The position numbers and the translations under genes are program-made. From positions 9,739-73,738 of the forward strand of contig JAFVIF010000076.1 of the NCBI GenBank assembly GCA_017474125.1: a DNA stretch of 64,000 bases, written 5' to 3'. The stretch's first letter is position 1, and each line of letters begins with the position of its first letter. Below the pieces are notes generated by a model. It had not been told where the DNA came from and did not search any database. It saw only the letters and a program-made list of their open reading frames with translations. Source of the DNA: Clostridia bacterium. GTDB lineage: Bacteria; Bacillota; Clostridia; Oscillospirales; Acutalibacteraceae. Below are positions 16,184 to 50,360 of this stretch, piece by piece.

Positions 16184-18244
16184 ATGCTTAAAGAAAATTT
16201 TGCAATGGAGGTTTTGGCTCCCGTAGGCAATACCGAAATGCTTTACGCCGCCGTAAGGTCGGGCGCAAATGCGGTATATTTAGGTGCAAAAAGCTTTAAT
16301 GCACGGCGCAACGCCGATAATTTCGAAATTTACGACCTGAAAGAGGCTGTTGAATACTGCCATATACGTGGTGTTAAGGTATACCTTACCCTTAATATTC
16401 TTATATCTGACGGCGAAATGAAGGATGCCGTAGGCCTTGCGGCAGACGCTTATAATATAGGCATTGACGGTGTTATTATTGCTGATTTAGGCCTTGCCCG
16501 CATTTTAAGGGAAAAGCTTCCCCTTCTTCCCCTTCACGCCTCTACCCAAATGACGGTATGCCATAAGGATTCCCTTTATTTTCTAAAGGAGCTTGGCTTC
16601 AGCCGTGTGGTTGCAGCGCGAGAAATGAGCAAGGCGGAGCTAAATGAGCTTTGCGCAACGGCAAAGGAGCTTAATATAGAGGTTGAGGTTTTCGTTCACG
16701 GAGCGCTTTGTATGTGCCTTTCGGGACAATGCCTGCTTTCCGCTCTGCTTGGCGGACGAAGCGGCAACCGAGGACTTTGTGCAGGCCCCTGCCGTTTACC
16801 CTTTAGTGACCGAAAGGGCAACGATTACGTTTTAAGCCTTAAGGATTTATCCCTTCTACAGCATATTGACGAGCTTTCAAAAATGGGCGTTACCTCCCTG
16901 AAAATTGAAGGCAGAATGAAGCGAAGCGAATACGTTGCCGCCGCTGTCAGCGCCTTTAGAAGTATGGTTGATACGGGAAGCGTGCCTGAGGAATATGAAA
17001 AATGCCTAAAAGACGTTTTCAGCCGCTCGGGCTTTACCGACGGCTACTTTACCGAAAAGCGTTCAAAGGAAATGTTCGGCATTCGCACCAAGGAGGACGC
17101 CGGCGACGCCAAGGGCGCCTATCCCTTTTTACACGAGCTTATCCGTCACGAAAGGCAAAGCGTGGGTATTAGCATTTCTGCAGTAATAAAAGAAAACGAG
17201 CCTGTCACCCTTACTCTTTGCGACAATGAAAACACCGTTACCGTAACAGGGGAGCTTCCCGAAAAAGCCATAAACCGACCGTTAACTAAAGAAGCCGCGG
17301 CGCAGAATCTTTCAAAATTAGGCTCGACACCATATTTTGCCGAAAAGCAGGAAATTATTATTGACGACGGCATTACGGTACGCGCCTCTGCCCTTAACGA
17401 AATGCGCCGAAAGGCCTGTGAATTATTGAGCCTTAAGCGAGCGGAAATTAAAAGGGAAAGGGTAACCGTTTGCCTTTCTGCCCAATACTTAAATCCCCCA
17501 AAAACGGAAAAGGAGCTTTGGGTAAGGGTTAACTCGCCTTGCTTACTGCCCGACGATTTAAGCGGCATTTCGGCGGTGCTCCTCCCCATTGAAGCAGACC
17601 ACGATTTATTAAGGCTTTACGGCAAGGTGCTTTTAATTGCCGAGCTGCCGAGAGCAGGGCTTTACGGCAATGAGCTTAAGGAAAAATTAGAAAAGGCTAA
17701 GAAAAGCGGCTTTACCGCCGCCCTTGTCCAAAACTCGGCGCAGTTAAAGGCCGTAACCGACGTTGGACTCACCCCCATCGGCGGAAACGGGCTTAACGTT
17801 TTTTCCTCTCACACCCTTTCCACCCTAAAGTCCTTTGGCATAAACACCGCCGTTCTGTCACCCGAATTACGGGCCGAGCAAATAAACAGGCTTAATTCAG
17901 AAGTAAAAACCGTTCTTTTTGCCTATGGCAGGCTTCCTCTTATGATAACGAGAAACTGTCCTGCCGCACTTAGCGGCTGTAAGGACTGCAAGGGCGACAG
18001 GGTTATTACCGACCGCATGGGTATATCCTTCCCCGTCAAGTGCCGAAGCGGCTACAGCGAGCTGTTTTGCGACCGCCCCATTTGGCTTGGCGACCGCACT
18101 GATGAATTTAACGTTGACGCGCTTCTGCTTTACTTTACCTTCGAAGAAGGGAATGAAACCGAAAGGGTTATAAAGGCCTATAAAAACGGTGAAAAGAATA
18201 GTGGCGAATACACAAGAGGTATGTATTACAGAGGTGTAGAATAG
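16184..18244 (+). CDS. Peptidase U32 family protein (long form with a C-terminal extension)
   Basis: MEVLAPVGNTEMLYAAVRSGANAVYLG... and E-x-F-x-H-G-A-L-C (VEVFVHGALCMCLSGQC) are the U32 signature. Confidence 0.85.
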   Translation: MLKENFAMEVLAPVGNTEMLYAAVRSGANAVYLGAKSFNARRNADNFEIYDLKEAVEYCHIRGVKVYLTLNILISDGEMKDAVGLAADAYNIGIDGVIIADLGLARILREKLPLLPLHASTQMTVCHKDSLYFLKELGFSRVVAAREMSKAELNELCATAKELNIEVEVFVHGALCMCLSGQCLLSALLGGRSGNRGLCAGPCRLPFSDRKGNDYVLSLKDLSLLQHIDELSKMGVTSLKIEGRMKRSEYVAAAVSAFRSMVDTGSVPEEYEKCLKDVFSRSGFTDGYFTEKRSKEMFGIRTKEDAGDAKGAYPFLHELIRHERQSVGISISAVIKENEPVTLTLCDNENTVTVTGELPEKAINRPLTKEAAAQNLSKLGSTPYFAEKQEIIIDDGITVRASALNEMRRKACELLSLKRAEIKRERVTVCLSAQYLNPPKTEKELWVRVNSPCLLPDDLSGISAVLLPIEADHDLLRLYGKVLLIAELPRAGLYGNELKEKLEKAKKSGFTAALVQNSAQLKAVTDVGLTPIGGNGLNVFSSHTLSTLKSFGINTAVLSPELRAEQINRLNSEVKTVLFAYGRLPLMITRNCPAALSGCKDCKGDRVITDRMGISFPVKCRSGYSELFCDRPIWLGDRTDEFNVDALLLYFTFEEGNETERVIKAYKNGEKNSGEYTRGMYYRGVE

Positions 18245-18245
18245 T

Positions 18246-18279
18246 AAAAAAGACTTGTTCACTTGAACAAGTCTTTTTT
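18246..18279. terminator. Bidirectional intrinsic terminator
   Basis: AAAAAAGACTTGTTCA ct TGAACAAGTCTTTTTT, a 16-bp perfect stem between convergent genes. Confidence 0.85.
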
Positions 18280-18280
18280 G

Positions 18281-19042
18281 TCAGTCTTCATCTTTTTTAA
18301 ACACAAAGGGCTTTATAAGTCCGTAGGTGGCACCTGTAATTATAACCGTTATCATAAGCATAAGCACTATGGTAAGTCCCTTATCGATTACGCTGTCCAG
18401 TATTCTGACAGCATAAAAGGCCATTCGCAAAATAACCGAGGCGGCAAGCCAAAGCTTTTTATCACCGAATTTAAGCACCCTGTAAAAAATAACCGCAAAG
18501 GCAATTTCGGTTATAAACAGCATTAGCATTATGAGTAAATCGTAAAAATGATAAAGGGCGGAGCTGTCGGCAACCTGAGCAACGTTTTCTTCAAAAATCA
18601 CCGAAATACCTTCATTTTGGTTTTTAATATATATTGCCGAAATAATTGCGTTAACCACCGCTGATACACCGTAGCCCAATGCCATAAGACAGGAGGAAAA
18701 GCCTGCTCCCGCCATAATGCCGTCGACGTTTTGCTTTTCCTTTTTCATAACAGCCTTAAACCAAACAAGGTAGCCTACAGCTACGCAAAGAGTTTCGGCG
18801 GCAATGGTTATTCCGCTTTTTACGACGGTGCCCTCCATATCGTCAAATACCCCTGCAACAACCTCTAAATACGCCATAAGCACCGCGTAAATAAGACAGT
18901 AGAAAATTACGTAAACGGCTACGCCGCCGAAAAAGGCCTTTCCCCTTGCCGAGTATTTTCTTTTAAGGTAAATATAGGCGGCGGCAGGTATTATAAACGC
19001 CGTTAAAGCCTTTAATGCAAAAAGAATCAGAGACGAAATCAA
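18281..19042 (-). CDS. Polytopic membrane protein of unknown function (possibly YhfC-like)
   Basis: 253 aa with about 7 hydrophobic helices. The family assignment is uncertain. Confidence 0.5.
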   Translation of the reverse strand: MISSLILFALKALTAFIIPAAAYIYLKRKYSARGKAFFGGVAVYVIFYCLIYAVLMAYLEVVAGVFDDMEGTVVKSGITIAAETLCVAVGYLVWFKAVMKKEKQNVDGIMAGAGFSSCLMALGYGVSAVVNAIISAIYIKNQNEGISVIFEENVAQVADSSALYHFYDLLIMLMLFITEIAFAVIFYRVLKFGDKKLWLAASVILRMAFYAVRILDSVIDKGLTIVLMLMITVIITGATYGLIKPFVFKKDED

Positions 19043-19286
19043 TGCATTTTCCTCCTTTTAATTTTCACTTTATTATACAGCTTTTATAACCGATTGTCAA
19101 TTATTCTGCCTGCGCCTGAATTCAAGAGGCGGTTTGAATTTTTTTGCTTCATAAAGCACCTCTGACATTTTTTTAAAGTTTTAAAGCGCAAATTTAAAGT
19201 TTTCCTTTAATTTCACCCTTACAATAAAAGAAAAGCAAGCCTTTTTACAAAATTACTTTAAAAATATGCCAAACGGAGGAAAGATT

Positions 19287-21974
19287 ATGCAAAGCATTTG
19301 GATTGACGCCGCCGAATTTGAAAATAAGGGCGGATGGAAATTTGAGACTCAATTTGTAAGAAGTGTAGGAAGCGCATATCTTTTAGGACTTGATAAACCC
19401 GGTGTTCCCGTAGAGGCTGCTACCACCACCTTTACGGTAAAAGAAGAGGGAAACTACCGTTTCTTTGTACGCACCAAAAACTGGAAATTCCCCGAAGCCC
19501 CCGGTCAGTTTACTCTTGCCGCAGACGGCAAAGAGCTTCCCAACACTTTAGGTAAAATGCCTACTCATAAGTGGTACTGGGAAATTGCAGGTGACCTTTA
19601 TCTTACAAAGGGGGAGCACACCCTTTCTGCCGTTGATAAAACAGGCTGGCTTGCCCGTTTTGCAAGTGTTGTAATAACCAACGATATGGATTTTACCCCC
19701 TCTCCCGAAACCGAGCGTTTCTTAAAGCAGAGAGCCGAAATAAAAGGTATTTCTCCAAAAACTGCCGAGCTGCATTTTGATTACGTTATTATAGGCGCAG
19801 GCCCTGCAGGCATACCCGCCGCTATTGAAGCCGCAAGAAGCGGTCTTAAAGTCGCTCTTGTTTCGGGCAGACCCGCTATAGGCGGTAACGCAAGTGATGA
19901 AGGCACTATCGGTATGGAGGGTGCCGCTTCCAATAATCTCGGTTCATGGGAAGGCGGTATTTTCGGTGAAGTAAGAGCCTTACATATGCCCGGCGGTCTT
20001 ACCTATCAGGCTGCTTTTGAAACCCTTTGCGCAAGAGAAAAAAATCTTACTGTTTTCGTAAACGAGCTTTGTATTGATGCCGAAAGTGAAAACGGACATT
20101 TGATTTCTGCCACAACCATTAATACCATCACCCTTGAAAAGACGAAATTTACCGCCGATTACTTCTGTGACAGCAGCGGTGACGGTTGGCTGGGTTACTA
20201 TGCAGGCGCAGCCTATCGCGTAGGTCGAGAGGCAAGATGGGAATACAACGAAAGTCTTGCTCCCGAAGTACCCGACACCCTTACAATGAGCGGTTGTATT
20301 TGCGGTTGGCAAGAAGATATGCCCAAAATGAGAAGCTATAAGGCTGTAAAGACCGACCATAAGGTTACCTTTACGGCGCCCGATTGGGCAATTAAGCTTC
20401 CCGAAGGCGAAAAGCTTCACCGCGAACCCGTTCAGATTCATTCGAGCTCTTGGTGGCTTGAAAACTCCAACGACCACGATGATTTATGGGATGACGAATT
20501 CACCCGTGACGAAATGATACGTCTTGCCATTGGATATTTCCATTGGATTAAAAATTCGGCTCCCTTAAAACCCCACTTAGCCGAAGAGGTTGATTATTAC
20601 GAATTGGCGGCTCTTGCTCTTCACAATTCCAAAAGAGAATCCCGCCGTCTTATCGGTGATTACGTATTTAACCAGAATGACTGTAATTCGGACAGAGTTT
20701 ATCCTGATACCGTTTCCTATTGCGGTTGGTGTATCGACGTGCATCACCCGAGAGGAATTTATTCAGGTGAAGAAGGCGAATTCCATGCAAATTTACCGGT
20801 TCCCGTATCTCCTCTGCCCTACAGAATTCTTTATTCCAAAAACATTGATAACCTCTTTATTGCCGGCAGATGCTGTTCCGTTTCTCACCTTGGTCTCGGC
20901 ACAGTTCGCGTAGAAGCTACTTTGGCAACACTCGGTCAGGTAACAGGCGCCGCCGCTTATCTTTGTAAAAAGTACGGAACTACTCCCCGTGGAATTTACG
21001 AAAATCATATTAAAGAGCTTCAGCAGCTTCTTCTCCGCCACGATTTAACAATCCCCGGTGTTATAAACGAGGACGAAAAGGATTTGGCAAGAACTGCTAC
21101 CGACAGCGCTTCAAGCGTTGCAAAAGACGTTTATTTCTGCCGTAATTACGGCACAAAGGATTTGTGGATTCCCTTCGAAACCGTAATTTTTGCAGGTCCC
21201 TACTGTGATTCGGCAAAGCATCCTGCAGAATTTTATAAAGCAGAGCTTAAGAATTTGTCAGACAAAGACGTTACCTTTAAGGCGTACTTATGGCAGTATA
21301 ACGACCGAGAAGATATAAACGAAACTATGGAAAAAATTGCCGAATGTGAGATTTCACTTAAAGCAAACAGTGAAGCTTTGGTTGATTTGCCGTTTAACGC
21401 GCAATCCAAGCCGGCTAACTTCGTTGTTTCCTTTGACGCTAACAAAGATATCGCCTGGAGAAGACGTATTCATCCATATGGCTCAGGTGTTGTTTACTTC
21501 CTTAAGGACGGCAAAATAGTTCAAAGCCCTGATGAAACCATGGAGCTGTTCTTTAGCAGTGCGTTACACTTCACGGTTGACGCTTCACCCGAAAACGTTA
21601 TTAACGGCATTAACCGTCCGTTAAACCAAAAACTAAACGGTTGGGCTTCGGAAAAAGGACTTCCCGCCAGTCTTTACCTTAAGCTTAAAGAGCCTAAAGA
21701 AATAAGTGAGGTTAGAGTTACTACACAGATTGATCTTTCTTACCCCAGATTCAACTTCCACCGCCTTACCTCTTCTGTAGGTACTGCAAACGACGTTACC
21801 ATAAGTATCAGAAACGGTGAAAGCTGGCGTGAAGTTGCGCATATAACCGATAACATTCAAAAGCAGATGGTGGCAAGGTTTACCCCCACTCTTGCCGAAG
21901 AAGTTAAAATCACCGTAAACAAATCTTTATTAGACGATGCGGCGCACATAACCGAAGTCAGAATTTACGAATAA
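19287..21974 (+). CDS. FAD-dependent oxidoreductase (FAD_oxidored-type) with an N-terminal beta-rich domain and a C-terminal F5/8 type C (discoidin)-like domain; paralog 1
   Basis: Start set at ATG 19287 (GGAGGA RBS, matching the paralog start). Dinucleotide fold DYVIIGAGPAGIPAAIEAARSGLKVALVSGRPAIGGNAS. C-terminal ...NGWASEKGLPASLYLKL...ISEVRV...ITEVRIYE. Confidence 0.8.
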   Translation: MQSIWIDAAEFENKGGWKFETQFVRSVGSAYLLGLDKPGVPVEAATTTFTVKEEGNYRFFVRTKNWKFPEAPGQFTLAADGKELPNTLGKMPTHKWYWEIAGDLYLTKGEHTLSAVDKTGWLARFASVVITNDMDFTPSPETERFLKQRAEIKGISPKTAELHFDYVIIGAGPAGIPAAIEAARSGLKVALVSGRPAIGGNASDEGTIGMEGAASNNLGSWEGGIFGEVRALHMPGGLTYQAAFETLCAREKNLTVFVNELCIDAESENGHLISATTINTITLEKTKFTADYFCDSSGDGWLGYYAGAAYRVGREARWEYNESLAPEVPDTLTMSGCICGWQEDMPKMRSYKAVKTDHKVTFTAPDWAIKLPEGEKLHREPVQIHSSSWWLENSNDHDDLWDDEFTRDEMIRLAIGYFHWIKNSAPLKPHLAEEVDYYELAALALHNSKRESRRLIGDYVFNQNDCNSDRVYPDTVSYCGWCIDVHHPRGIYSGEEGEFHANLPVPVSPLPYRILYSKNIDNLFIAGRCCSVSHLGLGTVRVEATLATLGQVTGAAAYLCKKYGTTPRGIYENHIKELQQLLLRHDLTIPGVINEDEKDLARTATDSASSVAKDVYFCRNYGTKDLWIPFETVIFAGPYCDSAKHPAEFYKAELKNLSDKDVTFKAYLWQYNDREDINETMEKIAECEISLKANSEALVDLPFNAQSKPANFVVSFDANKDIAWRRRIHPYGSGVVYFLKDGKIVQSPDETMELFFSSALHFTVDASPENVINGINRPLNQKLNGWASEKGLPASLYLKLKEPKEISEVRVTTQIDLSYPRFNFHRLTSSVGTANDVTISIRNGESWREVAHITDNIQKQMVARFTPTLAEEVKITVNKSLLDDAAHITEVRIYE

Positions 21975-22016
21975 TAAAAATAAACGCGGAAATAGAGTCG
22001 TACTCTTAAGGACAGT

Positions 22017-22055
22017 AAAAAAGAAGCACGAAAATTTCGTGCTTCTTTTACTTTT
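22017..22055. terminator. Intrinsic terminator (bidirectional)
   Basis: AAAAGAAGCACGAAA a TTTCGTGCTTCTTTT, followed by a T-rich tail. Confidence 0.75.
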
Positions 22056-22165
22056 GTCTTATACCGTAACAAGCAGGACATTTTGACGCCCAAATGTCAC
22101 TTGTTAGGAGAACCTAAAACCCTCTATAATAATTATTATATTTCAAACTATTGTAATTATTACTC

Positions 22166-22870
22166 TTATTTGTTAATCTCCGCAAGATAACCCGCCGTAA
22201 TAACACCAGACGGCAATGCAATTATTGCAATGCCAAAAGCAGAAGAGATCATTGTAACAATTCTACCTATTGTTGTTACTGGATAAATATCGCCATAACC
22301 AACAGTTGTTAATGAGATGGTCGCCCAATAAATAGCATCAAAAAATGTCTCAAATGATTCCGGCTCAACATTATATATTACAAGAGCAGAAACCAAAATA
22401 TAAGCAACTGCCATTGTCGCAACTGCGGATAAAACCTTTTTCTGTTTTTTAAACACGCTAGCTATAATATCGAAACTTTTTGAATATCGCAAAAACTTGA
22501 AAACACGCAACACCTTTAATGTCCTTAACAGTCTAAACAGTTTCAACAATCTAAAGCCATTATTCAAGACAGAAATAGAAGGCAATATGGAAACTAAATC
22601 AATAATGGCCATTGGTGTAATCGGATAGATAAAGAAAGAAACCACTGACTTTTTAATTTTGAAATCTGCAGTTATCAATCTCAAAAAGTAGTCTAAGATA
22701 AAAATGCTTACAGTTATGTAGTCTATCCACCGAAAAACGGCATTTGTCTCTTTGAAAGCAAGTGGAACAAGGCTTATAACGATAGTTGTCATCATTATAA
22801 AATCGTAAATATTACTCAACTTACTGCCGTTGTCTACCGGCTCAATCACTGAAAATACTTTCTTCCTCAT
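22166..22870 (-). CDS. Voltage-gated-type (6TM) potassium channel
   Basis: S4-like helix RLLKLFRLLRTLKVLRVFKFLR has a positive charge at every third residue. Pore signature TTVGYGD. There is no RCK/ligand domain. AGGTG RBS. Start is 3 nt after the upstream gene's stop. Confidence 0.85.
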   Translation of the reverse strand: MRKKVFSVIEPVDNGSKLSNIYDFIMMTTIVISLVPLAFKETNAVFRWIDYITVSIFILDYFLRLITADFKIKKSVVSFFIYPITPMAIIDLVSILPSISVLNNGFRLLKLFRLLRTLKVLRVFKFLRYSKSFDIIASVFKKQKKVLSAVATMAVAYILVSALVIYNVEPESFETFFDAIYWATISLTTVGYGDIYPVTTIGRIVTMISSAFGIAIIALPSGVITAGYLAEINK

Positions 22871-22873
22871 AAT

Positions 22874-23230
22874 TTACACCTGTTTTGATTTTATCGTTTT
22901 AAGTGATGAAATTAACATTCTGCGAATCGCTCCGCATTCGTTTTGAACATCATTATAAATATCCTTAGTCATGCAGCCCGTCTCAAAAAGAAGTTCTAAC
23001 CAATATTCAGTTTCATAACACTCTTTTTGGGCTATTTCGAGTTTTGAAATAAAATCTTTAGTTCCTTGTGCATACTGAGCTTCGTGTAAATTTGCTCCAA
23101 TAGAGGTCGCTGAGCGAAGCAACTGATTTATTAAAACGGATTCTTTATGATTTGTTTTCATATCGCGACAAAGAAAAACGGTTTTCTTTGCAAACTCTTT
23201 TGCCTTATCTCTTAAAATACTATCCGCCAT
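22874..23230 (-). CDS. Four-helix-bundle protein (23S rRNA intervening-sequence protein / Avd-like family)
   Basis: Start set at ATG 23230 (GAGGTGA RBS). ...LINQLLRSATSIGANLHEAQYAQGTKDFISKLEIAQKECYETEYWLELL... matches the family hallmark (Q-x-x-RS-x-x-SI-x-AN-x-x-E...DF...A-x-x-E-x-x-E-x-x-YWL). Confidence 0.8.
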   Translation of the reverse strand: MADSILRDKAKEFAKKTVFLCRDMKTNHKESVLINQLLRSATSIGANLHEAQYAQGTKDFISKLEIAQKECYETEYWLELLFETGCMTKDIYNDVQNECGAIRRMLISSLKTIKSKQV

Positions 23231-23280
23231 AGTTATCACCTCTAAATCTATTATACATAAAGGATGATAATCTTTCAAGT

Positions 23281-23455
23281 TATATTCCGCCTTTGTCGGA
23301 GTGATATTATTGCCTTACGTCAATAGTGATATTGAAACCTTGCGGTTTCAGTGGTATTTTATTCGCCAATAACTGCCGAAGGCAATATCACTTGGGCTTT
23401 AATCCAAATATCACTGCGTAGCAATATAACTCGCCGTCAGGCGAATAAAACTGTT
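23281..23455. repeat. Heptamer-punctuated mini-hairpin array, copy A
   Basis: Units of ~23-25 nt. Each is a distinct short stem-loop followed by GTGATAT (23301, 23326; GTGGTAT 23351) and, further right, by the reverse complement ATATCAC (23385, 23408; ATATAAC 23424). Positions 23414-23447 are 33/34 identical to 50294-50327. Confidence 0.7.
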
Positions 23456-24369
23456 TATAGGTCACCCTCATCGGGCTCCAAGTCACAAATGTGAAGCTTT
23501 CTGAATTTTAACGGAGCTGTTCCCGTACTTTTTTTAAAGACAACCGAAAAATAATCGGTATTATAAAAGCCGCAGGAAAAGGCAATATCTTTAATGCTTC
23601 GGTCGGTTTCTATTAAATATCTACAGGCGCGCTCTATTCTTTTTCTGCGTATAGCGCTGGCTATTCCGTCAGAGGAAAATTCTATAAACAAATGCTGCAA
23701 ATACGAAAGGCTTACGTTTACGCGTTTGGCTACACTGAGTGGCGTAATATTTTCACAGCAATGCTTATCTATATGGTCCATTGCCATAAGAAAGTATTTG
23801 CGGCGATTATCAGGAGCATTTTTGTTTGACGTCGGCCTCATAAGCGGCGTGTTTCCCACTATATCGATTATCATATCAGCCACTACACCTAAATAACTTT
23901 TTAGCCTGCAAACGGTAGCTTCATCGGTTTCCCTTAAATGCGCTTGACGGAATTTTTCAAATTCTTCCACACCGGTTTCAGTATGTTTTGCCAGAATTTC
24001 AGTCATTTTTTGGCTTAGTGGTGAGAAAAAACCTGCCGCACAAACTGTACCTATATGCACACCGCTTATAAAAATGGGTATGGTATATTCCGCAACGCCG
24101 CAATAACAAACGCTAAAACCCGCGCAGCCTCTTTTTCTTTCTCTTCTTCTTGTGGCGCGCTTTAGTGCTACACACCTTTTCCAAAGTCTTGGATTCTTCT
24201 TTATTTTCATACAATAAGGATTAGTATGCCATTTTTTGTCCGATAAATATTCACCGATTATTTCATAAGGACGAAGCACCGAATAAAAATCCTCAATTAT
24301 TATATGCCAACCCGTATCCTTTGAAAGCACGTCCAAATAGTTTTTAAGCTTATCTATTTTAGTTTTCAT
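23455..24369 (-). CDS. AraC family transcriptional regulator with an N-terminal PocR-like Cys-rich sensor domain
   Basis: Start set at ATG 24369 (GGAGG RBS). The N-terminal domain has C-x-K...C...CAGFSVCYCGVAEYTIPIFISGVHIGTV, which is PocR-like. C-terminal AraC HTH (IKDIAFSCGFYNTDYFSVVFKKSTGTAP). Divergent from FAD paralog 2. Confidence 0.75.
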   Translation of the reverse strand: MKTKIDKLKNYLDVLSKDTGWHIIIEDFYSVLRPYEIIGEYLSDKKWHTNPYCMKIKKNPRLWKRCVALKRATRRRERKRGCAGFSVCYCGVAEYTIPIFISGVHIGTVCAAGFFSPLSQKMTEILAKHTETGVEEFEKFRQAHLRETDEATVCRLKSYLGVVADMIIDIVGNTPLMRPTSNKNAPDNRRKYFLMAMDHIDKHCCENITPLSVAKRVNVSLSYLQHLFIEFSSDGIASAIRRKRIERACRYLIETDRSIKDIAFSCGFYNTDYFSVVFKKSTGTAPLKFRKLHICDLEPDEGDL

Positions 24370-24498
24370 ACAACCTCCGCAGAAAATCATCGCACAAAAG
24401 CACAAAATCAAAGTTTTTTATTACATTTTAACGTTATAATAGGAAAAATGCAAGTGTTTTTACAAAAACACTTTAAAATAATGCTTGGAGGTTAAATT

Positions 24499-27189
24499 AT
24501 GCAGACCATTTGGATTGACGCCGCCGAATTTGAAAATAAGGGCGGATGGAAATTTGAGACTCAATTTGTAAGAAGTGTAGGAAGCGCATACCTTTTAGGT
24601 CTTAGCAAACCCGGTATACCCGTAGAGGATGCTCAGGCTTCCTTTACCGTAGAGGAAGACGGATACTACCGTTTCTTTGTACGCACCAAAAACTGGAAGT
24701 TCCCCGAGGCTCCCGGTCAGTTTAAGCTTTCTGCCGACGGAGAGGAATTGCCTAATACTTTAGGCAAAATGCCTACTCATAAGTGGTACTGGGAAATTGC
24801 AGGTGACGTTTATCTTACAAAGGGCGAACACACCCTTTCCGCCGTTGATAAAACAGGCTGGCTCGCCCGTTTTGCAAGTGTTGTTATTACCAACGATTTT
24901 GATTTCACCCCCTCCCCCGAAATTGAGCGTTTCTTAAAGCAGAGAGCAGAAATTAAGGGCATTTGCACAAAACCCGAAGAATTACATTTTGATTACGTTG
25001 TTGTAGGTGCAGGCCCTGCCGGTACCCCCGCCGCTATTGAAGCTGCAAGAAACGGCCTTAAGGTTGCCCTTATTTCAGGTAGACCTACCATAGGCGGTAA
25101 CGCAAGTAACGAAGGCACCATCGGTCTTGACGGCGCCGCTTGCCGTAATAAAGGCGCTTGGGAAGGCGGTATCGCCAACGAAATCAGAAATTATCATATG
25201 ACCAAAAAACTCGGTTGGCAGAAATCTATGGAAGCGCTTTGTGAGGAAGAAGAAAATCTTACCGTATTCTGTAGCGAGCTTTGTATAGATGCCGAAAGTG
25301 AAAACGGACATATTATTTCTGCCACCACCGTAAATACCACTACCCTTAAGAGAACAAAGTTTTTTGCAGATTTCTTCTGCGACTGCAGTGGCGATGCTTG
25401 GCTCGGTTATTACGCAGGCGCCGCCTACCGTATGGGCAGAGAAGCAAAATGGGAATATAATGAAGAATTCGCTCCCGAAGTCCCCGACACCCTTACAATG
25501 AGCGGTTGCCTTTGCGACGAGCAGGAGGGTATGCCTCATATGAGAATTTTCCGTGCACGTCCCACAGATAAAGAGGTTGAGTTTACCGCACCCGAATGGG
25601 CTATAAAGCTTCCCGAAGGTGAAAAGCTTCATCGCAAAGTAGCCGGACTTAGCGGTGCTATGTGGTGGCTTGAAAACTCTAACGACCACGACGACCTTTG
25701 GGATGATGAATTTGCCCGTGACGAAATGGTGCGCTTGGGACTCGGCTACTTCCATTGGCTTAAAAATTCCGCACCGCTAAATGATGAACTTGCATCTAAG
25801 GTTAAATACTACGAGCTTTGCGGTATTGCACTTCACAACTCAAAAAGAGAAAACCGCAGACTTATAGGCGACTACGTATTTAATCAGAACGACTGTGTTG
25901 CAGACAGAGTTTATCCCGATACTATCTCTTATTGCGGTTGGTGTATTGACGTACATCATCCGAGAGGAATTTACTCAGGCGCTGAAGGCGCATTCTATTC
26001 CAATGCATGTATACCCTGCTGTCCGCTTCCCTACCGTATTATTTATTCAAAGAACATTGACAACTTATTTATGGCAGGACGTTGCTGTTCCGTTTCTCAT
26101 ATAGGTCTTGGCACCGTAAGAGTTGAATCTACCATTGCTACCTTAGGTCAGGCAACAGGCGCTGCCGCTTATCTGTGCAAAAAGTACGGTACCACCCCGA
26201 GAGGAATTTACGAAAGCCATATTAAAGAGCTTCAGCAGTTACTTGTTCGTCACGATTTAACAATCCCCGGTATAGAAAACGAAGACGAAAAGGATTTGGC
26301 AAGAACCGCTACGGTTACCGCTTCAAGCGTTGCCGACGACCTTTATCTTTTATCGGTTCACGGCACAAAGGACGTATGGGTTCCCCTTACCACCGAAATT
26401 TATTCAGGTCCTTACTGCCACGCCGCCACCTATCCTGCCGAGTTCTACAAGGCTGAGCTTAAGAATTTAAGCGACCAAAAGGTTACCTTGAAGGCTAAGC
26501 TCTGGCAGTATAATCAAAAGGAAGATATCAACGAAACCATTGAGCAAATCGGAGAATGCGAGATTACTATTGAACCCGATTGCGAAACAATTGCAGACCT
26601 TCCCTTCGGCGTTAAATCAAAAATGGATAACTTTGTTGTTTCATTCGAACCTAACGAAAAAATCGCCTGGAGAAGACGTATTTATACCGTTGACGGCTCG
26701 GCTGTAGTTTACTATACCGAAGACGGTAAAATAGTTCAGCATCCAAAAGAAGGTATGGAGCTTTACTTTAACAGCGAAATAAACGTTTTGGCAGACGCTT
26801 CTCCCGAAAACGTTATTAACGGCGCAAACCGTCCCGTTGGCAACACCCTTAACGGCTGGGCTTCAAAGAGAGGACTTCCCGCAAGTCTTACCTTAAAGCT
26901 TAAGGAAGCAAAGGAAATAAGCGAAGTACGTATAACAACTCAGGTTGACCTTTCCTATCCACAGTACTGCTTTACAGGTGACACAAAATCAATAGGCACC
27001 GCAAGTGACGTAACGATAGAGGTTAAAAAAGGCGAAAATTGGTGCGAAGTTGCCCATATTAAAGATAACGTTAAAAAGCAGATGGTGGCCCACTTTACGC
27101 CCACTCTTGCAGAGGAAGTAAGAATCACCGTAAATAAGTCCATATTAGACGATGCGGCTCATATTACCGAAGTAAGAATTTACGAATAA
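24499..27189 (+). CDS. FAD-dependent oxidoreductase with an N-terminal beta-rich domain and a C-terminal discoidin-like domain; paralog 2
   Basis: Same architecture as 19287-21974 and collinear over the full length. DYVVVGAGPAGTPAAIEAARNGLKVALISGRPTIGGNAS. GGAGG RBS. Confidence 0.8.
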   Translation: MQTIWIDAAEFENKGGWKFETQFVRSVGSAYLLGLSKPGIPVEDAQASFTVEEDGYYRFFVRTKNWKFPEAPGQFKLSADGEELPNTLGKMPTHKWYWEIAGDVYLTKGEHTLSAVDKTGWLARFASVVITNDFDFTPSPEIERFLKQRAEIKGICTKPEELHFDYVVVGAGPAGTPAAIEAARNGLKVALISGRPTIGGNASNEGTIGLDGAACRNKGAWEGGIANEIRNYHMTKKLGWQKSMEALCEEEENLTVFCSELCIDAESENGHIISATTVNTTTLKRTKFFADFFCDCSGDAWLGYYAGAAYRMGREAKWEYNEEFAPEVPDTLTMSGCLCDEQEGMPHMRIFRARPTDKEVEFTAPEWAIKLPEGEKLHRKVAGLSGAMWWLENSNDHDDLWDDEFARDEMVRLGLGYFHWLKNSAPLNDELASKVKYYELCGIALHNSKRENRRLIGDYVFNQNDCVADRVYPDTISYCGWCIDVHHPRGIYSGAEGAFYSNACIPCCPLPYRIIYSKNIDNLFMAGRCCSVSHIGLGTVRVESTIATLGQATGAAAYLCKKYGTTPRGIYESHIKELQQLLVRHDLTIPGIENEDEKDLARTATVTASSVADDLYLLSVHGTKDVWVPLTTEIYSGPYCHAATYPAEFYKAELKNLSDQKVTLKAKLWQYNQKEDINETIEQIGECEITIEPDCETIADLPFGVKSKMDNFVVSFEPNEKIAWRRRIYTVDGSAVVYYTEDGKIVQHPKEGMELYFNSEINVLADASPENVINGANRPVGNTLNGWASKRGLPASLTLKLKEAKEISEVRITTQVDLSYPQYCFTGDTKSIGTASDVTIEVKKGENWCEVAHIKDNVKKQMVAHFTPTLAEEVRITVNKSILDDAAHITEVRIYE

Positions 27190-27194
27190 TTTAT

Positions 27195-27232
27195 TCAAGC
27201 CTTCCGAATTTAGGAAGGCTTGATACTTTTTT
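27195..27232 (+). terminator. Intrinsic terminator
   Basis: TCAAGCCTTCC gaattta GGAAGGCTTGA, followed by a T-run. Confidence 0.8.
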
Positions 27233-27233
27233 C

Positions 27234-27262
27234 TTGACAAATCCGCTTTGTCCTTGTATAAT
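27234..27262 (+). promoter_or_regulatory. Sigma-A promoter of the rpsF-ssb-rpsR operon
   Basis: TTGACA, 17-nt spacer, TATAAT (both hexamers consensus). Confidence 0.7.
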
Positions 27263-27348
27263 AGATAGGCTATTGGTGGTATTATGCCAAAAAATAGCTC
27301 CTTGCCGATCTGCGGATCGGACAAATGTCCATAAGGAGGTGCAACGCG

Positions 27349-27630
27349 ATGACTAACAAGTATGAGGCCGCTATGATTTTTTCCGTATTAAACGGCGACG
27401 AAGCTACCAAGGCTTTAGTTGAAAAATTCAATGCCCTTATTGCTGAAAACGGTACCATCGAAGATGTTGCTGATTGGGGCAAGCGCAAGCTCGCTTATCT
27501 TATCAACGACGAAACCGAAGGCTACTATGTTTTCACTACCTTTACAGCAGGCCCTGAATTCCCTGCTGAATTAGAGCGTGTAGCCGGTATTACCGACGGC
27601 GTTCTTCGCGCAATGGTTATTAAGAAGTAA
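27349..27630 (+). CDS. rpsF: 30S ribosomal protein S6
   Basis: MTNKYEAAMIF...WGKRKLAYLINDETEGYYV... AGGAGG RBS 8 nt upstream of ATG 27349. Confidence 0.9.
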   Translation: MTNKYEAAMIFSVLNGDEATKALVEKFNALIAENGTIEDVADWGKRKLAYLINDETEGYYVFTTFTAGPEFPAELERVAGITDGVLRAMVIKK

Positions 27631-27651
27631 TTAAAGAGAGGATGCGTTTTT

Positions 27652-28071
27652 ATGTTTAATCTTGTTGTTCTCACCGGTAGACTTACTGCCGATCCCGAAC
27701 TCAAAACCACACCCAGCGGTGTATCTGTAACCACCTTCTCTATCGCGGTTTCCCGTCGCTATAAGGCAGGAGAAGAAACCCAGGCCGATTTTATTAACAT
27801 CGTTGCTTGGAGACAGACCGCAGAATTCATTACCAAATACTTTAAAAGAGGCAGCATGATTGGTATCGAAGGTTCTATTCAAACCCGTCGTTACGTTGAT
27901 AAGGACGGCAAGAACCGTACCGTATTTGAGGTTATTGCAAATAACGCTCAGTTTGTAGAGTCCAAGCGCGATTCTGCCCCCGGAAGCGAAGCTCCTGCTT
28001 CCTTCTCTAACGCTTCGGCAAATGAATTTACCGAGGTTGCCGGTGAATCCGACGAAGATTTACCGTTCTAA
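27652..28071 (+). CDS. ssb: Single-stranded DNA-binding protein
   Basis: OB fold MFNLVVLTGRLTADPELKTTPSGVSVTTFSIAV and the acidic tail DEDLPF. Confidence 0.9.
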   Translation: MFNLVVLTGRLTADPELKTTPSGVSVTTFSIAVSRRYKAGEETQADFINIVAWRQTAEFITKYFKRGSMIGIEGSIQTRRYVDKDGKNRTVFEVIANNAQFVESKRDSAPGSEAPASFSNASANEFTEVAGESDEDLPF

Positions 28072-28122
28072 TTTAAGCTGTGACCATCGGTCACCCTACA
28101 AAAAATTCAGGAGGTCTTTATA

Positions 28123-28362
28123 ATGGAAAAGATGGAAAGACCTGCACATAGAAAAGTTCGTAAAAAGATTTGTCATTTCTGTGCAGACCGCGTAGAAGAA
28201 ATTGATTACAAGGATATTGCTCGTCTTCGTAAGTTCATTTCCGAGCGCGCTAAAATTCTTCCCCGCCGTGCAACCGGTACCTGTGCTGCTCATCAGCGCA
28301 AGTTAACCATCGCAATTAAGCGTGCACGTCAGATTGCTATTCTTCCTTACGTTAACGACTAA
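28123..28362 (+). CDS. rpsR: 30S ribosomal protein S18
   Basis: [48 protein letters not shown] is the canonical S18 sequence. Confidence 0.9.
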
Positions 28363-28382
28363 GAAGAAATATGTTATAAGTC

Positions 28383-28420
28383 AAAAAACACTCTGCTTTT
28401 AAGCAGAGTGTTTTTGTTTT
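28383..28420 (+). terminator. Intrinsic terminator of rpsR (copy 1 of a duplicated 33-nt element)
   Basis: AAAAAACACTCTGCTTTTAAGCAGAGTGTTTTT. The identical 33-mer recurs at 32541-32573. Confidence 0.85.
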
Positions 28421-28456
28421 ATTCCGGTTGGCTTTATTTTTTCTACTATTTGTGGA

Positions 28457-28485
28457 TTGCTTAAAAAATGGGTAAATGATATAAT
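28457..28485 (+). promoter_or_regulatory. Sigma-A-like promoter for the 933-aa/GNAT cassette
   Basis: TTGCTT, 17-nt spacer, TGaTATAAT (extended -10). Confidence 0.5.
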
Positions 28486-28534
28486 ATTTTTATAAAAAAG
28501 CGGCTTGAGTTTTTATAATAAAGGGAAATGATTT

Positions 28535-31336
28535 ATGAAAAGTTATATAATTTCTTCAGAAAACGGAAAAAGAAAAGTTTTATTCAACCTTAGTGACGAA
28601 GCGTTTGTTATGACCGTTGTCAATAACGGGGAAGAATATACTTTTAACTTTGCTGACGGTTTTTTTACCGAGCATTACTCTAAGGACTGGGGCGCTAAAA
28701 AGAATTATAATCTTTATAACTTTTATCATAATGCCACTAAAGTTACTGTAAACGATAATACTATTGAGTTTGTCTCAAACCCAAAGTTTATAAAAGAAGA
28801 AAAAGAACTTTCTAATATAACCGTTACCAACAGATTTACTCTTTTGGAAAATCAAGCCTCCGTTATACAGGAAACCTTTTTTGAGGTAGATGATGCCTTT
28901 TATGATTGTTGCCACAGGGTAGCAAGGGCGAAAATCGACCTTTCCTCTTTTGAAACTATAGAAAATGAGAAAGCAGGATTTTGTTTTAATATAAGCGATT
29001 TGGAAAGAAGCAATATCGGTTATCCCGAGGAACTTGTTTTAAGGGGCAAAAACCGATATTTAAAGGTAAACGGCGGTTTGGTAACGGTTACCGGCACTAC
29101 ACTTGAAGCCCATTATTATTCTTTTGATTATGATGATACTCCCTCTTATTATAATTCAAAGAATCCTATATACACCGTATATTCCTTTGAAGAGTGCGAA
29201 ACTCCCGAACTTCCCGTAAAGGAAAAGAGCAGTGTAAACGATAACGATATTTTATATTTAAACAGCGGTATTCTCAGTTTAAAGATTAAAAAAAGCGAAA
29301 GAGGAATCGCTTTTATTAACAACGGCAACGAAATGCCCGTCACCGCATTAGCCTTTAAAAATTTAAAAACAAACGAAACACTATACGCCGATACTTTAAG
29401 GGACTTTGAAAAGGTACAAATAAATAAAAACGGAAATTGTACTGAATTTTTACTTTTTAATCCAAGGGGAATTACTGACGTTTGTCTTAAAATAAAAGCG
29501 CAGGCCATAGAGGATAAAAACCGTTTTGAATGGGAAGTAGAAGTTATTAACAACAGTGAAGATTATTCTCTTTTCTGGTGCAACTATCCTCGATTGTACG
29601 TTGAATGCGGCAAAAATTACAATTTATTTATGCCCGAAAACGGTGGTACTGAATTTTGCGGTTTTTCTAACTCGGATTTGCATTATATTTCTTCCTATCC
29701 GGACGGATTTTACGGCACTATGTCATATATGGCGTTATATTCTAAGGAAATAAGCGAAAATAACGGAATTTATTTTGCTATTCACGATTCTCTCGGCAGC
29801 AGAAAAGAATTTAGTGCCGCAGGAACGCAATCAAACAGTTTAAGGTTTAATTGTCGCTTTTATGCCGAAAACATAGGTGAATCCAAAAATTCCAATCGTT
29901 TGCCCGGTAAGGCAATTTTCCAAATCTTTACGGGAGATTGGTTCGATGCCACTGAGCTTTACAGTGAATTTGTTCGTAATGAATGTTATTGGACAAAACG
30001 TAATATCAAAGACAAAAACACACCTCTTTGGATGCAGGATATCCCGTTTTGGATTATGGATTGGGTACCCTATGATAACGACGAAAAAGTACCGACCAAA
30101 TTGCGTACCGATAGTGACGTTATAGGTCCAAACGATTGGTACGAAAAGGCTATAAGACTTCAAAAGGAATTTGGTGTGCCTATCGGATATCACGTTTATA
30201 ATTGGCATAAAATTCCTTTTAATAATGATTATCCTCATTTTATGCCCGCTAAAGAAAAATTTATAAACGGACTTAAAGAATTAAAGAAGTCTGATATCAG
30301 AGTTATGCCGTATATTAACGTGCTTTTGTGGGATACAAAGGATAAAGAAAACGAAGACTTTGAATTTGAAACACTTGGTAAGCCGGGTGCGGTGAAAAAA
30401 GAAGACGGAACACCGCAAACCTTTAGTTTTGAGTCAAAGGAAAAGGATGGTAATCCTGTTGAGTTGGCGGCAATGTGTCCGTCAAGTAAAATTTGGCGCG
30501 AAAAACTAACGAAACTTATCACCGAAATGTTTAATGAGCTGGATATAGACGCTATTTATTTAGACCAGTTGGCTGCAAGAGTACCGCTTCTTTGTATGGA
30601 TAAAACCCATAATCACCCTGCGGGAGGCGGCTCGTGGTGGGCAAAGGAATATAATGATTTGGCCGCCGAGCTCAACGCGCATAAGCCGAAGGACAAAGCC
30701 TTTACAACCGAATGTAATGCCGAAGTTTATGCGGGTCAAATAGATGGATTTTTGTCTTGGACCTGGATGAGAAGCACCAATGAAGTTCCTGCATTTATGC
30801 GCATTTATTACGATATTATTAAAGTGTTTGGCAGAAACACGGGCGGCGCTACGAAACATTGTCATATGCAGTGGAAATATAATTTGGCGCAAAGTCTTTT
30901 GTGCGGTCAGCAAATGGGCTGGGTAAATGCCGACCTTGTTGATATGCCCGACAGACTTGAGTTCACTAAAAAGTTAGTACGTTTCCGTTATGAGAATCGT
31001 GAGTTTTTCCGTAATGCAAGGGTTATGCGTCCACCAACCGTTTTAGCCGATAAATCCCATCGTTTTTACAGCGATATAGCTATGCGACACGTAGGTGTTT
31101 TGATTCAGCCGTATATATGTGTGGGTGCTTTGCAAAACGGCAATAAAAATATGATAATTTTGGTTAATACAGGCAAGGAAAAAATGACCGATGTCGTTAC
31201 CTTTAATTCGGCGGAATACACCATAGCGGACAACCGTAGAGTATATGGCGACGGAAGTATAAAAATGCTGAATAGCGGTAGTTTTGAATGTACAATTGAC
31301 GGAGAAAGTTATATTTGCATTGAATGGAATAGCTGA
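28535..31336 (+). CDS. Large cytoplasmic protein of unknown function (933 aa); the C-terminal half looks like a glycoside-hydrolase-type barrel
   Basis: Uninterrupted 933-codon ORF with no signal peptide. The segment HVYNWHKIPFNNDYPHFMP...MPYINVLLWD...DAIYLDQLA...FTTECNAE resembles GH-like TIM-barrel strand ends. The family was not recognised by eye. Confidence 0.6.
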   Translation: MKSYIISSENGKRKVLFNLSDEAFVMTVVNNGEEYTFNFADGFFTEHYSKDWGAKKNYNLYNFYHNATKVTVNDNTIEFVSNPKFIKEEKELSNITVTNRFTLLENQASVIQETFFEVDDAFYDCCHRVARAKIDLSSFETIENEKAGFCFNISDLERSNIGYPEELVLRGKNRYLKVNGGLVTVTGTTLEAHYYSFDYDDTPSYYNSKNPIYTVYSFEECETPELPVKEKSSVNDNDILYLNSGILSLKIKKSERGIAFINNGNEMPVTALAFKNLKTNETLYADTLRDFEKVQINKNGNCTEFLLFNPRGITDVCLKIKAQAIEDKNRFEWEVEVINNSEDYSLFWCNYPRLYVECGKNYNLFMPENGGTEFCGFSNSDLHYISSYPDGFYGTMSYMALYSKEISENNGIYFAIHDSLGSRKEFSAAGTQSNSLRFNCRFYAENIGESKNSNRLPGKAIFQIFTGDWFDATELYSEFVRNECYWTKRNIKDKNTPLWMQDIPFWIMDWVPYDNDEKVPTKLRTDSDVIGPNDWYEKAIRLQKEFGVPIGYHVYNWHKIPFNNDYPHFMPAKEKFINGLKELKKSDIRVMPYINVLLWDTKDKENEDFEFETLGKPGAVKKEDGTPQTFSFESKEKDGNPVELAAMCPSSKIWREKLTKLITEMFNELDIDAIYLDQLAARVPLLCMDKTHNHPAGGGSWWAKEYNDLAAELNAHKPKDKAFTTECNAEVYAGQIDGFLSWTWMRSTNEVPAFMRIYYDIIKVFGRNTGGATKHCHMQWKYNLAQSLLCGQQMGWVNADLVDMPDRLEFTKKLVRFRYENREFFRNARVMRPPTVLADKSHRFYSDIAMRHVGVLIQPYICVGALQNGNKNMIILVNTGKEKMTDVVTFNSAEYTIADNRRVYGDGSIKMLNSGSFECTIDGESYICIEWNS

Positions 31337-50163: not shown

Positions 50164-50360
50164 GTGATATGCTGACTAAAGTCAGCGTGATATTTTCGCT
50201 TTGCGAAAGTGATATGAAACCTATCGGTTTCGTGATATTCTATTCGCCCATAAACTTGCGAAGCAAATATCACTCGGCGTAAGCCGAATAACACTGCGTT
50301 GCAATATAACTCGCCGTCAGGCGAATAGAGTTGCGTGATACTCTTAACGGAGTATCACGC
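50164..50360. repeat. Heptamer-punctuated mini-hairpin array, copy B
   Basis: GTGATAT at 50164, 50187, 50209 and 50232 (spacing 22-23 nt). Each is followed by a different perfect hairpin (GCTGAC-taaa-GTCAGC, TTTCGC-ttt-GCGAAA, GAAACC-tatc-GGTTTC). Further right come ATATCAC (50267), ATAACAC (50288) and ATATAAC (50304). The element ends in an 11-bp hairpin, GCGTGATACTC/GAGTATCACGC. Confidence 0.7.

Follow-up and report, generated by a model that had tools for sequence, protein, structure and literature searches.

Between two FAD oxidoreductase genes, paralogs of 75% identity, the window (the whole 64,000-nucleotide stretch of Clostridia DNA that was analysed) contains the following features.

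21976..21992, unstranded: the one arm left of the palindromic host terminator (AAAAATAAACGCGGAAA) that separates the first FAD gene from the AraC gene, recognised from the empty site in G071, a genome of the same genus.
21994..23453, minus strand: the whole inserted unit, a probable cassette of 1,460 bp, delimited by the G071 empty site and by the homology limits at 14 other loci; on the right-hand side the limit may be 21993 or 21994, an ambiguity of 1 nt.
22019..22123, minus strand: cassette tail, made of a long imperfect hairpin (22069-22106) and a two-way terminator hairpin (22019-22049).
22124..22880, minus strand: exchangeable cargo module of 757 bp, with the channel leader, the channel gene and a 42-nt tail.
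22166..22870, minus strand: minimal six-helix voltage-sensor K+ channel gene, 234 aa (ORF and profile matches), the genome's single copy.
22874..23230, minus strand: four-helix-bundle gene (PF05635/TIGR02436), 118 aa, with its ATG start at 23230 (ORF and profile matches).
23242-23237, minus strand: ribosome-binding site GAGGTG of the bundle gene, 3' of the promoter.
23250..23278, minus strand: cassette promoter TTGAAA-17 nt-TATAAT, straight after the last linker, with 11/12 consensus positions.
23279..23453, minus strand: mirror hairpin array, a near-match to Gut-1 with compensatory changes.
24411..23455: PocR/AraC regulator gene, likewise between the two FAD paralogs.

The gene content given by the initial annotation, a 118-aa bundle gene 3 nt ahead of a 234-aa channel gene, is borne out by the ORFs and the family profiles. 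The bundle protein matches PF05635 with 93.2 bits (cut-off 33.8) over profile positions 4-105 of 106, TIGR02436 with 104.7 bits (cut-off 24) and PDB 2RLD at E 1e-28. It is one of six PF05635 matches in the source genome of 2.0 Mb. The junction of the two genes reads TAA-att-ATG, and a Shine-Dalgarno sequence of the channel's own (AGGTG, 22881-22877) lies within the final codons of the bundle gene. A longer, TTG-start version of the bundle ORF (from 23278) runs into the promoter, which is the best site of the region.

As for the channel, Ion_trans is matched with 91.3 bits (residues 20-227) and Ion_trans_2 with 60.8 bits, and residues 16-232 align with the six-helix core of Kv7.2 (E 2e-22). No residues are left over for a cytoplasmic domain, as had been proposed. 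The S4 helix carries R or K at every third position from R107 to K131; nine such residues are found instead of the eight first counted, and the TTVGYGD pore, read correctly at the outset, begins at residue 188. Among 39 channel relatives R113, R116, R122, K125 and R128 are invariant, and so are the filter residues, save the nearly invariant V190. With six helices, a charged S4 and a T-x-G-Y-G-D filter, the protein is predicted to be a Kv-type channel, and it would function without help from the bundle, as an ordinary tetrameric voltage-gated K+ channel. It shares six helices, the S4 spacing and TTVGYGD with KvAP/MVP-type channels and the eukaryotic Kv core. Unlike the KvAP/MVP type, it has no cytoplasmic domain, stays below the Methanocaldococcus MVP cut-off (48.8 against the 300 bits of the NCBIfam equivalog NF040645, hyperpolarisation-activated MVP K+ channel) and is found both in the lysogeny modules of phages and as part of mobile cassettes.

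In terms of composition, the pair is indeed AT-richer than the flanking FAD genes, with a GC of 0.345 (bundle) and 0.343 (channel) against 0.452 and 0.455; the AraC gene has 0.393 and the genome 0.42. The pair also lies between two paralogs, as first described, but the claim that it interrupts a tandem duplication as such does not hold: the regulator stands between the paralogs as well, and a same-genus genome keeps the paralog-regulator-paralog order without the pair. What was interrupted is therefore the terminator and not the duplication. The corresponding flanks of G071 (96% and 93% identity) abut across an intact palindromic terminator that separates the two converging genes (FAD oxidoreductase and AraC), and the empty site reads AAAAATAAACGCGGAAA|TTTCCGCGTTTATTTTT. 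The 1,460 bp of the window occupy the exact centre of this palindrome. A 17-nt host palindrome brackets the insertion, with one arm now deleted. The bundle-proximal end of the cassette is truncated: its terminal H0 hairpin and the second arm of the host terminator are missing.

At 14 loci in other species the unit recurs with 83-99% nucleotide identity from the start of the array to the end of the tail, and copies are found in both orientations. One other species has, at a different locus, a 100% identical channel protein inside a unit of 99.5% nucleotide identity. The 23 comparable flanks gave no similarity (at least 150 nt at E 1e-10 or better), and no FAD or AraC homolog was found at any of 80 channel loci. 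Both ends are present in 16 copies, and in 15 of these the flanks just outside can pair with each other over 8-16 nt, an A-run lying on one flank and a T-run on the opposite one. These flanks differ from locus to locus, being arms of host terminators and not inverted repeats of the element, and they show the sister cassette copies to occupy the loops of other terminators. The two ends of the cassette are different hairpins and the junctions in the window show no direct target-site duplication, which is not the layout of a MITE or a classical transposon.

An ordinary operon of the core genome, vertically inherited and flanked by hairpins that are unrelated intergenic repeats, would account for two intact genes with a good promoter and good ribosome-binding sites. 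It has next to no chance of being right, given the GC of 0.345 in a genome of 0.42, the near-identical unit in another species and the fact that, of 60 other genera in the family, only 18 yielded PF05635. Such an operon is already contradicted by the empty site and by the other-species copies with unrelated flanks.

The content of the unit also varies. Cassette copies without cargo pick up again at 22123, loci with the channel only show homology only from 22881 onward, and one contig of run X17 connects 22881 to 22123, the letters between them not being known. C56 has the cassette head and tail only, while in C58 an HTH_3 gene is the cargo behind an identical cassette promoter; copies of the tail at C58:6891-7004 and C56:14852-14967 adjoin an array with zero genes between. 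At least six gene-less full copies (~420 nt) are present in the source genome.

We consider it likely that 21994-23453 represents a mobile gene cassette of the non-autonomous kind, with a fixed chassis and a channel passenger. The chassis would comprise a Gut-1-type mirror array, a strong promoter, the PF05635 bundle gene and a tail of long hairpin and terminator. The channel, with its own RBS, would be a 757-bp passenger spliced in right behind the bundle gene. The cassette landed in the loop of the palindromic terminator, at its exact centre. The initial annotation had suggested, among other speculative possibilities, a selfish two-gene module. Carriage on a mobile unit is supported by the empty site and the 14 other species, and the pair can be called foreign and AT-rich, and selfish inasmuch as it rides such a unit; the specific functional link between bundle and channel found no such support.

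The cassette contains no transposase. Neither excised nor newly inserted copies were seen, so the case for mobility comes from genome comparison alone. In the source genome (86% complete) there is no IS110 match. For comparison with integron gene cassettes (attC end, cassette array, integron integrase close by), the six tyrosine-recombinase matches all lie off the window's contig, and cassettes occur singly. One weak Y1 transposase-like gene (Y1_Tnp) is present and is flanked by its own REP-like palindromes, different from that of the cassette. Like the window's element, REP/BIME/REPIN and IS200/IS605-derived palindrome-associated elements are dispersed extragenic hairpin repeats with hairpins at both ends; they have no inverted terminal repeats or target duplications, and are non-autonomous and presumably moved in trans. 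Unlike them, the element of the window has a linker-hairpin mirror architecture, a promoter with cargo genes, and insertion into terminator loops.

The cassette promoter would transcribe both genes, and the transcripts would stop at the cassette terminator. RNA-library contigs (three recorded RNA runs and one guessed, with small shares) cover parts of both genes with 88-99% likeness. The stretch 22870-22874 is spanned by none of them, and data of this kind reveal neither the strand nor the ends of transcripts.

The hairpin array on one side (23279-23453) and the long imperfect hairpin on the other had both been noted before and are both there, the latter together with a terminator (22019-22123). 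The array had then been treated merely as a border. It consists of short hairpins of free sequence, with the linkers AGTKATATT in its first half and AATATCACT in its second. Its mirror symmetry gives the two strands the same fold, and compensatory changes are seen in 17 of 50 predicted pairs. The source genome has 17 array matches, and relatives have between 0 and 15 each. Array detectors based on exact 7-mers and on perfect stems of at least 5 bp missed even known arrays and were dropped.

The first 74 nt of the array (23380-23453) match Rfam Gut-1 (RF01706) over model positions 1-77 of 77 with 46.2 bits (E 1.7e-7), below the gathering cut-off of 50, and L014 and L017 reach 45.7 and 45.8. By its sequence, the window's array is a close relative of Gut-1 and no formal member. 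According to the available text of Weinberg et al. 2010 (PMC2864571), which assigns it no function, Gut-1 is likely a stand-alone non-coding RNA known from environmental sequence only, its source being uncultured gut bacteria; it has three hairpins, and like the window's array it combines short hairpins with a constant GUGAAAU-like linker. Unlike Gut-1, the motif of the window is half of a longer mirror array that heads a gene cassette.

The first proposal of Gut-1 as a non-coding RNA (PMC2864571, in the text available) speaks for the array being a transcribed RNA element, a leader or small RNA, in a unit that is not self-mobile and spreads passively on phages or by repeat recombination. The compensatory changes that maintain the hairpins point the same way, as do the RNA-library contigs that also cover the array and a record labelled unverified phage scaffold, in which an array and a bundle gene stand behind a tRNA gene. 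We find this rather improbable. The array stands upstream of the cassette's own promoter, its mirror symmetry makes both strands fold alike, and the contigs may be contaminating DNA. Furthermore, repeat recombination fails to explain both orientations, terminator loops, exact junctions and flanks without homology.

Across the gene neighbourhoods compared, the constant neighbour of the bundle is the hairpin array and not the channel. A mirror-motif score of at least 5 is reached in 21 of 33 bundle upstream regions versus 45 of 1,265 control upstreams, and among 25 relatives PF05635 is present in 14 of 15 with arrays versus 2 of 10 without. In a quick FastTree tree the linker type (for other bundles, ACATCGTT in C31 and TGTAATC in L078) tracks the bundle clade and the cargo does not; this agreement of array type and bundle clade could be a matter of joint inheritance alone. 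G072, a 99% complete genome, lacks PF05635 genes and contains 10 arrays, so arrays persist without the bundle; G064 and G079 are the opposite exceptions, having a bundle and no A-type arrays. As for the mobile cassette, the bundle protein would act on its own array, binding the linker-hairpin units in folded form, whether of DNA or of RNA. Such binding would aid movement of the cassette into extruded hairpins, through an unknown enzyme supplied in trans, or else would control the adjacent promoter.

The protein family is shared with the 23S rRNA intervening sequences (IVS) that carry an S23p/PF05635 ORF, as in Coxiella and Leptospira. In the available text of PMC4990558 these elements lie in the loop of a host hairpin, are regarded as selfish and have short tandem repeats upstream of the ORF. 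The element of the window likewise sits in a host hairpin loop. It was rejected as a 23S IVS itself, its host site being a terminator between FAD oxidoreductase and AraC genes and not rRNA helix 25 or 45. Unlike an IVS, it has its own promoter, terminator and passenger gene, and nothing here shows RNase III excision. Six further bundle genes show the complete IVS layout, in which long inverted repeats (21-41 nt) enclose the ORF: five are in the family sample and one, between dnaK and dnaJ, is in the source genome.

The channel is shown by its neighbourhoods to be an exchangeable passenger whose family also travels alone. Bundle and channel adjoin at 16 of 71 informative channel loci (14 of one cassette type, 2 of a second). 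Among the bundle-less channel loci whose upstream was read by eye, 7 of 18 lie behind a tRNA gene and its terminator. All six phage copies are within lysogeny modules, without the bundle. Elsewhere the channel's own leader is the sequence that here holds the last codon and the stop codon of the bundle gene, and the join looks like a capture junction. In a second bundle lineage (C-type) the channel is directly downstream with a 23-nt gap, and this association falls in a separate clade of the channel tree (a quick tree). A-type and C-type bundles are 38% identical and their channels 79%. Two unrelated array/bundle lineages each carry the channel, so the channel was captured at least twice.

A true two-gene functional module, selected as a pair, would make the bundle a cytoplasmic partner, assembly factor or antidote of a membrane-depolarising channel, for example in a defence or addiction module. 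The 3-nt stop-start spacing retained in all 14 sister copies fits such a module, as does the second, 38% identical lineage with its channel directly downstream; this uptake by two lineages and the tight junction could reflect selection for the pair. Temperate-phage channel relatives adjoin repressor and integrase, and exclusion genes are often found beside these two. We nevertheless judge it very unlikely that the two genes form a selected pair. The neighbourhood survey went against a specific link: the bundle is missing at 55 of the 71 loci and in the six phage copies, and the genes downstream of 17 other family bundles are all different, with channels at 0/17. In the source genome they include GNAT, NUDIX and dnaJ, and bundles of the window's own clade precede unrelated small ORFs. 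Among the anti-phage defence models of PADLOC-DB v2 neither protein matches any family at E 0.01 or better, and the junction itself resembles one of capture. A complex prediction for channel (39-row alignment) and bundle (27-row alignment) gave 0.00 twice against a mark of 0.32 and, having no controls, counts neither way.

With the cassette reading, orphan Gut-1 (unexplained since 2010) and function-less PF05635 can be placed in a defined context that is open to test, namely a cassette that carries cargo, has exact ends and an empty site, and prefers one target, the terminator loop. The comparison also shows that gut Clostridia and their phages trade a textbook voltage-gated K+ channel horizontally, as an accessory gene, which raises the question of what selects for a mobile voltage sensor. 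For annotation, tight pairs of a bundle gene and some other gene are not to be taken as functional operons. New points are the phage link, the carriage of the channel as cargo, and insertion into a terminator loop for which an empty site is known. The literature searched, which left out most subscription journals, held no account of hairpin-array cassettes with PF05635, of terminator-loop insertion in Clostridia or of a link between phage K+ channels and exclusion.

A wider reading, which we offer tentatively and as unlikely to hold in full, joins two parts: PF05635 proteins as specificity factors, encoded by the elements themselves, of a large and so far undescribed class of mobile elements that home to hairpins, and the Kv-type channel as an exclusion gene expressed in lysogens. 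The proteins of each bundle clade may pick out the linker-hairpin array of their own element when it is folded as single-stranded DNA, and may guide a host enzyme that would put the element into extruded hairpin loops (terminators, tRNA-flank terminators, operon spacers, rRNA helices). The S4 of the channel could sense the membrane depolarisation of phage entry and respond with K+ loss. If true, hairpin homing would tie together the Gut-1 motif, the 23S intervening sequences and the Avd proteins of diversity-generating retroelements (DGR).

DGR Avd and the window's bundle belong to a homologous four-helix-bundle fold family, and Avd works with structured nucleic acid and a polymerase (both from the available text of PMC10053308). 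Avd sits with a reverse transcriptase and with template and variable repeats; the ORF and profile search found no reverse transcriptase at the window's locus (no such ORF in 17000-29000), and the bundle was rejected as a DGR Avd. The genome's only reverse transcriptase match (RVT_1) is a 352-aa stand-alone gene on the same contig, ~14 kb past the end of the window. With a structured non-coding region upstream, it looks retron-like.

The bundle and channel genes lie in a 1,460-bp cassette (window 21994-23453), which was inserted with exact ends into a terminator loop and recurs at unrelated sites in many species. The empty site is seen in a genome of the same genus (G071), where the terminal part of the first FAD gene (96% identity) adjoins the AraC gene and the second FAD gene (93%) with no cassette between them. 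What stands there is an intact palindromic terminator alone, AAAAATAAACGCGGAAA followed by TTTCCGCGTTTATTTTT, and in the window the cassette occupies the centre of this palindrome. Since then the window copy has lost the cassette's first hairpin and the terminator's second arm.

Features of the gene pair and its signals (window positions)
23278..23250, promoter TTGAAA-17-TATAAT, immediately 5' of the bundle gene; 11/12 match, top promoter score of the region
23230..22874, minus strand, bundle ORF, 118 aa, stop TAA
22870..22166, minus strand, channel ORF, 234 aa, start 3 bases after the bundle stop
22019-22049, two-way terminator, 3' of the channel gene

Profile matches, coordinates and the 3-base spacing confirm the gene pair of the initial annotation. 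The bundle protein scores 93.2 bits with PF05635 and 104.7 bits with TIGR02436, both well over the cut-offs, and its nearest solved structure is 2RLD. The channel is complete, six-helix and Kv-type, with Ion_trans spanning residues 20-227 in the profile search, the selectivity-filter motif TTVGYGD at residue 188 and an alignment with the Kv7.2 core (E 2e-22). Its S4 is the charged helix with R/K at every third position that had been annotated, but the count is nine (R107 to K131) and not eight. The pair is also AT-richer than the flanking FAD genes, as first noted, with a GC of ~0.345 for each gene against 0.45 for the FAD genes and 0.42 for the genome. These FAD paralogs are 75% identical and do flank the pair, but a PocR/AraC regulator gene also sits between them.

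The channel search, in which each species was represented by one genome, yielded 251 relatives, and the best 80 were retained as loci. In 14 of these 80, nucleotide homology of 83-99% runs from the array's first base to the last hairpin past the terminator and ends there; at one sister locus the channel protein is 100% identical and the unit 99.5% identical in nucleotides. No resemblance was found among any of the 23 available flanks of the sister loci, and none of the best 80 channel loci has a FAD or AraC homolog. The unit has thus inserted at separate locations in separate species. In sister loci and gene-less copies of the window's own genome, the bases outside both ends are mutually reverse-complementary, unlike in sequence from locus to locus, with an A-run before one arm and a T-run after the other. 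Complementary runs reach 8-16 nt in 15 of the 16 copies possessing both ends, against a mean of 6.3 and a maximum of 12 for mismatched pairs, a control whose values are inflated by the runs of A and T. The empty site of G071 is thus the stronger proof that the arms are host terminators.

The cassette family begins with a hairpin, H0, which has a conserved loop and a freely variable stem. Next comes a mirror array of short hairpins, whose linkers read AGTKATATT in the first half and AATATCACT in the second. The array's initial 74 nt align with the full length of the Rfam Gut-1 model at 46.2 bits, slightly under the cut-off of 50, making it a near-member by score. Pairing is kept via two-sided changes in 17 of 50 predicted pairs across 18 aligned copies. 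Array matches number 17 in the own genome and 0-15 per genome across 25 relatives, and full gene-less units of ~420 nt are present in at least 6 copies in the own genome. Contig C56 has a window-type head and tail with nothing in between, while contig C58 shares the window's head and promoter, followed by a 296-aa HTH_3 gene and the same tail. A second Gut-1-type hairpin array was seen at window 50181-50327, minus strand (G000:C71:59919-60065), with a different tail and without bundle or cargo gene.

Three lines of sequence evidence agree on a passenger of 757 bp, from 22124 to 22880. Homology of channel-only loci to the window is confined to 22881 onward, and cargo-less cassette copies pick up again at 22123. 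A single contig of RNA-library run X17 joins 22881, the end of the bundle gene, to 22123 in the tail, skipping the 757-bp channel module, with the letters between not known, which points to a version of the same cassette that has the bundle only. The last codon and stop codon of the bundle fall within the channel's own leader of other loci (GGTGTAAAT-ATG), and this overlap reads as a capture junction.

Nine of the best 80 channel loci have too little upstream sequence, leaving 71 informative. A bundle is directly 5' of the channel in 16 of them and absent in 55. Upstream genes are heterogeneous at the bundle-less loci, and in 7 of the 18 whose upstream sequence was inspected the channel is preceded by a tRNA gene with its terminator. 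Loci L078 and L079, both among the 16 with a bundle, have a third type of array (TGTAATC and GATTACA as linkers) behind a tRNA gene, with a bundle 38% and a channel 79% identical to those of the window. A quick channel tree puts them among bundle-less channels, in a supported, separate clade, so the channel was taken up by the array and bundle chassis at least twice. At L078:4960-5030, 3' of the tRNA-flank cassette with bundle and channel, the tRNA gene 3' end is repeated and a second terminator follows, which resembles a duplicated attachment site.

The channel also travels on its own. Relatives with 57-61% identity were found in five viral contigs (L150-L154, two near-identical to each other), and one further relative in a complete temperate phage genome (L155, Dulem virus 33, PP511792.1). 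These six channels have an integrase or serine recombinase within ~1.5 kb, directly adjacent in 4 of the 5 contigs; an HTH_3 repressor-like gene is just upstream in 4/6, and no bundle is beside any of the six. They sit in temperate-phage lysogeny modules, positions that often house exclusion genes.

The 2.0-Mb own genome has 6 PF05635 matches, probably 5 genes with one split across two contig ends. Genes 3' of these bundles are the channel, GNAT (twice), NUDIX and dnaJ, and two copies sit behind a second array type with linkers ACATCGTT and AACGATGT. The dnaK-dnaJ copy (L008:4993-5361; G000:C35:46492-46860) has a 37-nt run of a GGATTTA heptamer on each side, in inverted orientation, arranged as in a 23S intervening sequence, inside the heat-shock operon (compare PMC4990558). 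On C58 (L010:1564-5400), ~1.1 kb 3' of another bundle-NUDIX pair, we observed a protein of 1,279 aa that has a TIR domain at its N terminus and a SecA_DEAD-like domain, an architecture that looks defence-like.

PF05635 is present in 18 of 60 other family genera (one genome per genus). The upstream survey pooled 28 loci from those 18 genomes with the 5 own copies. A mirror-motif score of at least 5 was found in 21/33 bundle upstream regions versus 45/1,265 control gene upstreams, and of at least 6 in 16/33 versus 12/1,265. Five of the other family loci are bracketed by inverted repeats of 21-41 nt. None of the 17 downstream genes scanned is a channel; they include class II tRNA synthetase, aminotransferase, HNH, OMP decarboxylase, GT2, GNAT, deaminase, Phd/YefM, YcxB, ASCH, AAA_21 ATPase, DUF1294 and APH. 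Where a downstream ORF is present (22 loci), there is a 4-nt overlap with the bundle stop in six and a 38-nt overlap in one more. Tight coupling to any following gene is a habit of the bundle gene.

A quick bundle tree places IVS-type, heptamer-type and hairpin-array-type copies in successive groups, where linker type tracks the clade but cargo does not. Among the 25 relatives, PF05635 is present in 14/15 genomes with the window-type array versus 2/10 without, and outside the genus in 3/3 versus 1/7, counts that are descriptive because the relatives are mutually related. The exception is G072, with 10 arrays and no bundle. The array and the bundle stay together, whereas the cargo varies.

The pair had been proposed as a selfish two-gene module. 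This holds for the cassette as an exact-ended insertion at unrelated sites, but a functional tie between bundle and channel is not supported, with 55/71 channel loci lacking a bundle and 0/17 channels downstream of other bundles. A single transcript would run from cassette promoter to cassette terminator, with the channel translated from its own ribosome-binding site and probably functioning, without reliance on the bundle, as a tetrameric voltage-gated K+ channel. The bundle may act on its own array, in cassette movement or maintenance or in control of the adjoining promoter. Avd, of the same fold family, acts on structured nucleic acid together with a polymerase, according to PMC10053308; the window locus has no retroelement, and the analogy is a lead only. 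No known defence model matches either the bundle or the channel.

The 23S intervening sequences with S23p have the same protein lodged in the same way in a hairpin, but their host site differs from that of the cassette. Together with Gut-1, Avd and REP/REPIN-type repeats, they are the nearest described systems. No description of this cassette was found in the literature searched. New here are the empty site with its terminator-loop target, the finding that the channel is a passenger captured twice, the test of array-bundle co-occurrence and its exception, and the channel homologs in phage lysogeny modules.

Elsewhere in the genome is a single IS200-like Y1 transposase-type ORF (L143:1426-1908, contig C61 of G000; 23.4 bits), with palindromes of its own, of the type GGGACGATG...CATCGTCCC, on either side and within it. 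It looks like a REP-associated transposase gene and has no sequence relationship to the window array. About 14 kb past the window end (L157:1267-2325, contig C71 of G000) is a 352-aa stand-alone reverse transcriptase with a structured non-coding stretch upstream, which looks retron-like. Just beyond this gene, at L157:2440-2560, a hairpin array with GTGAAAT linkers lies beside tRNA genes.
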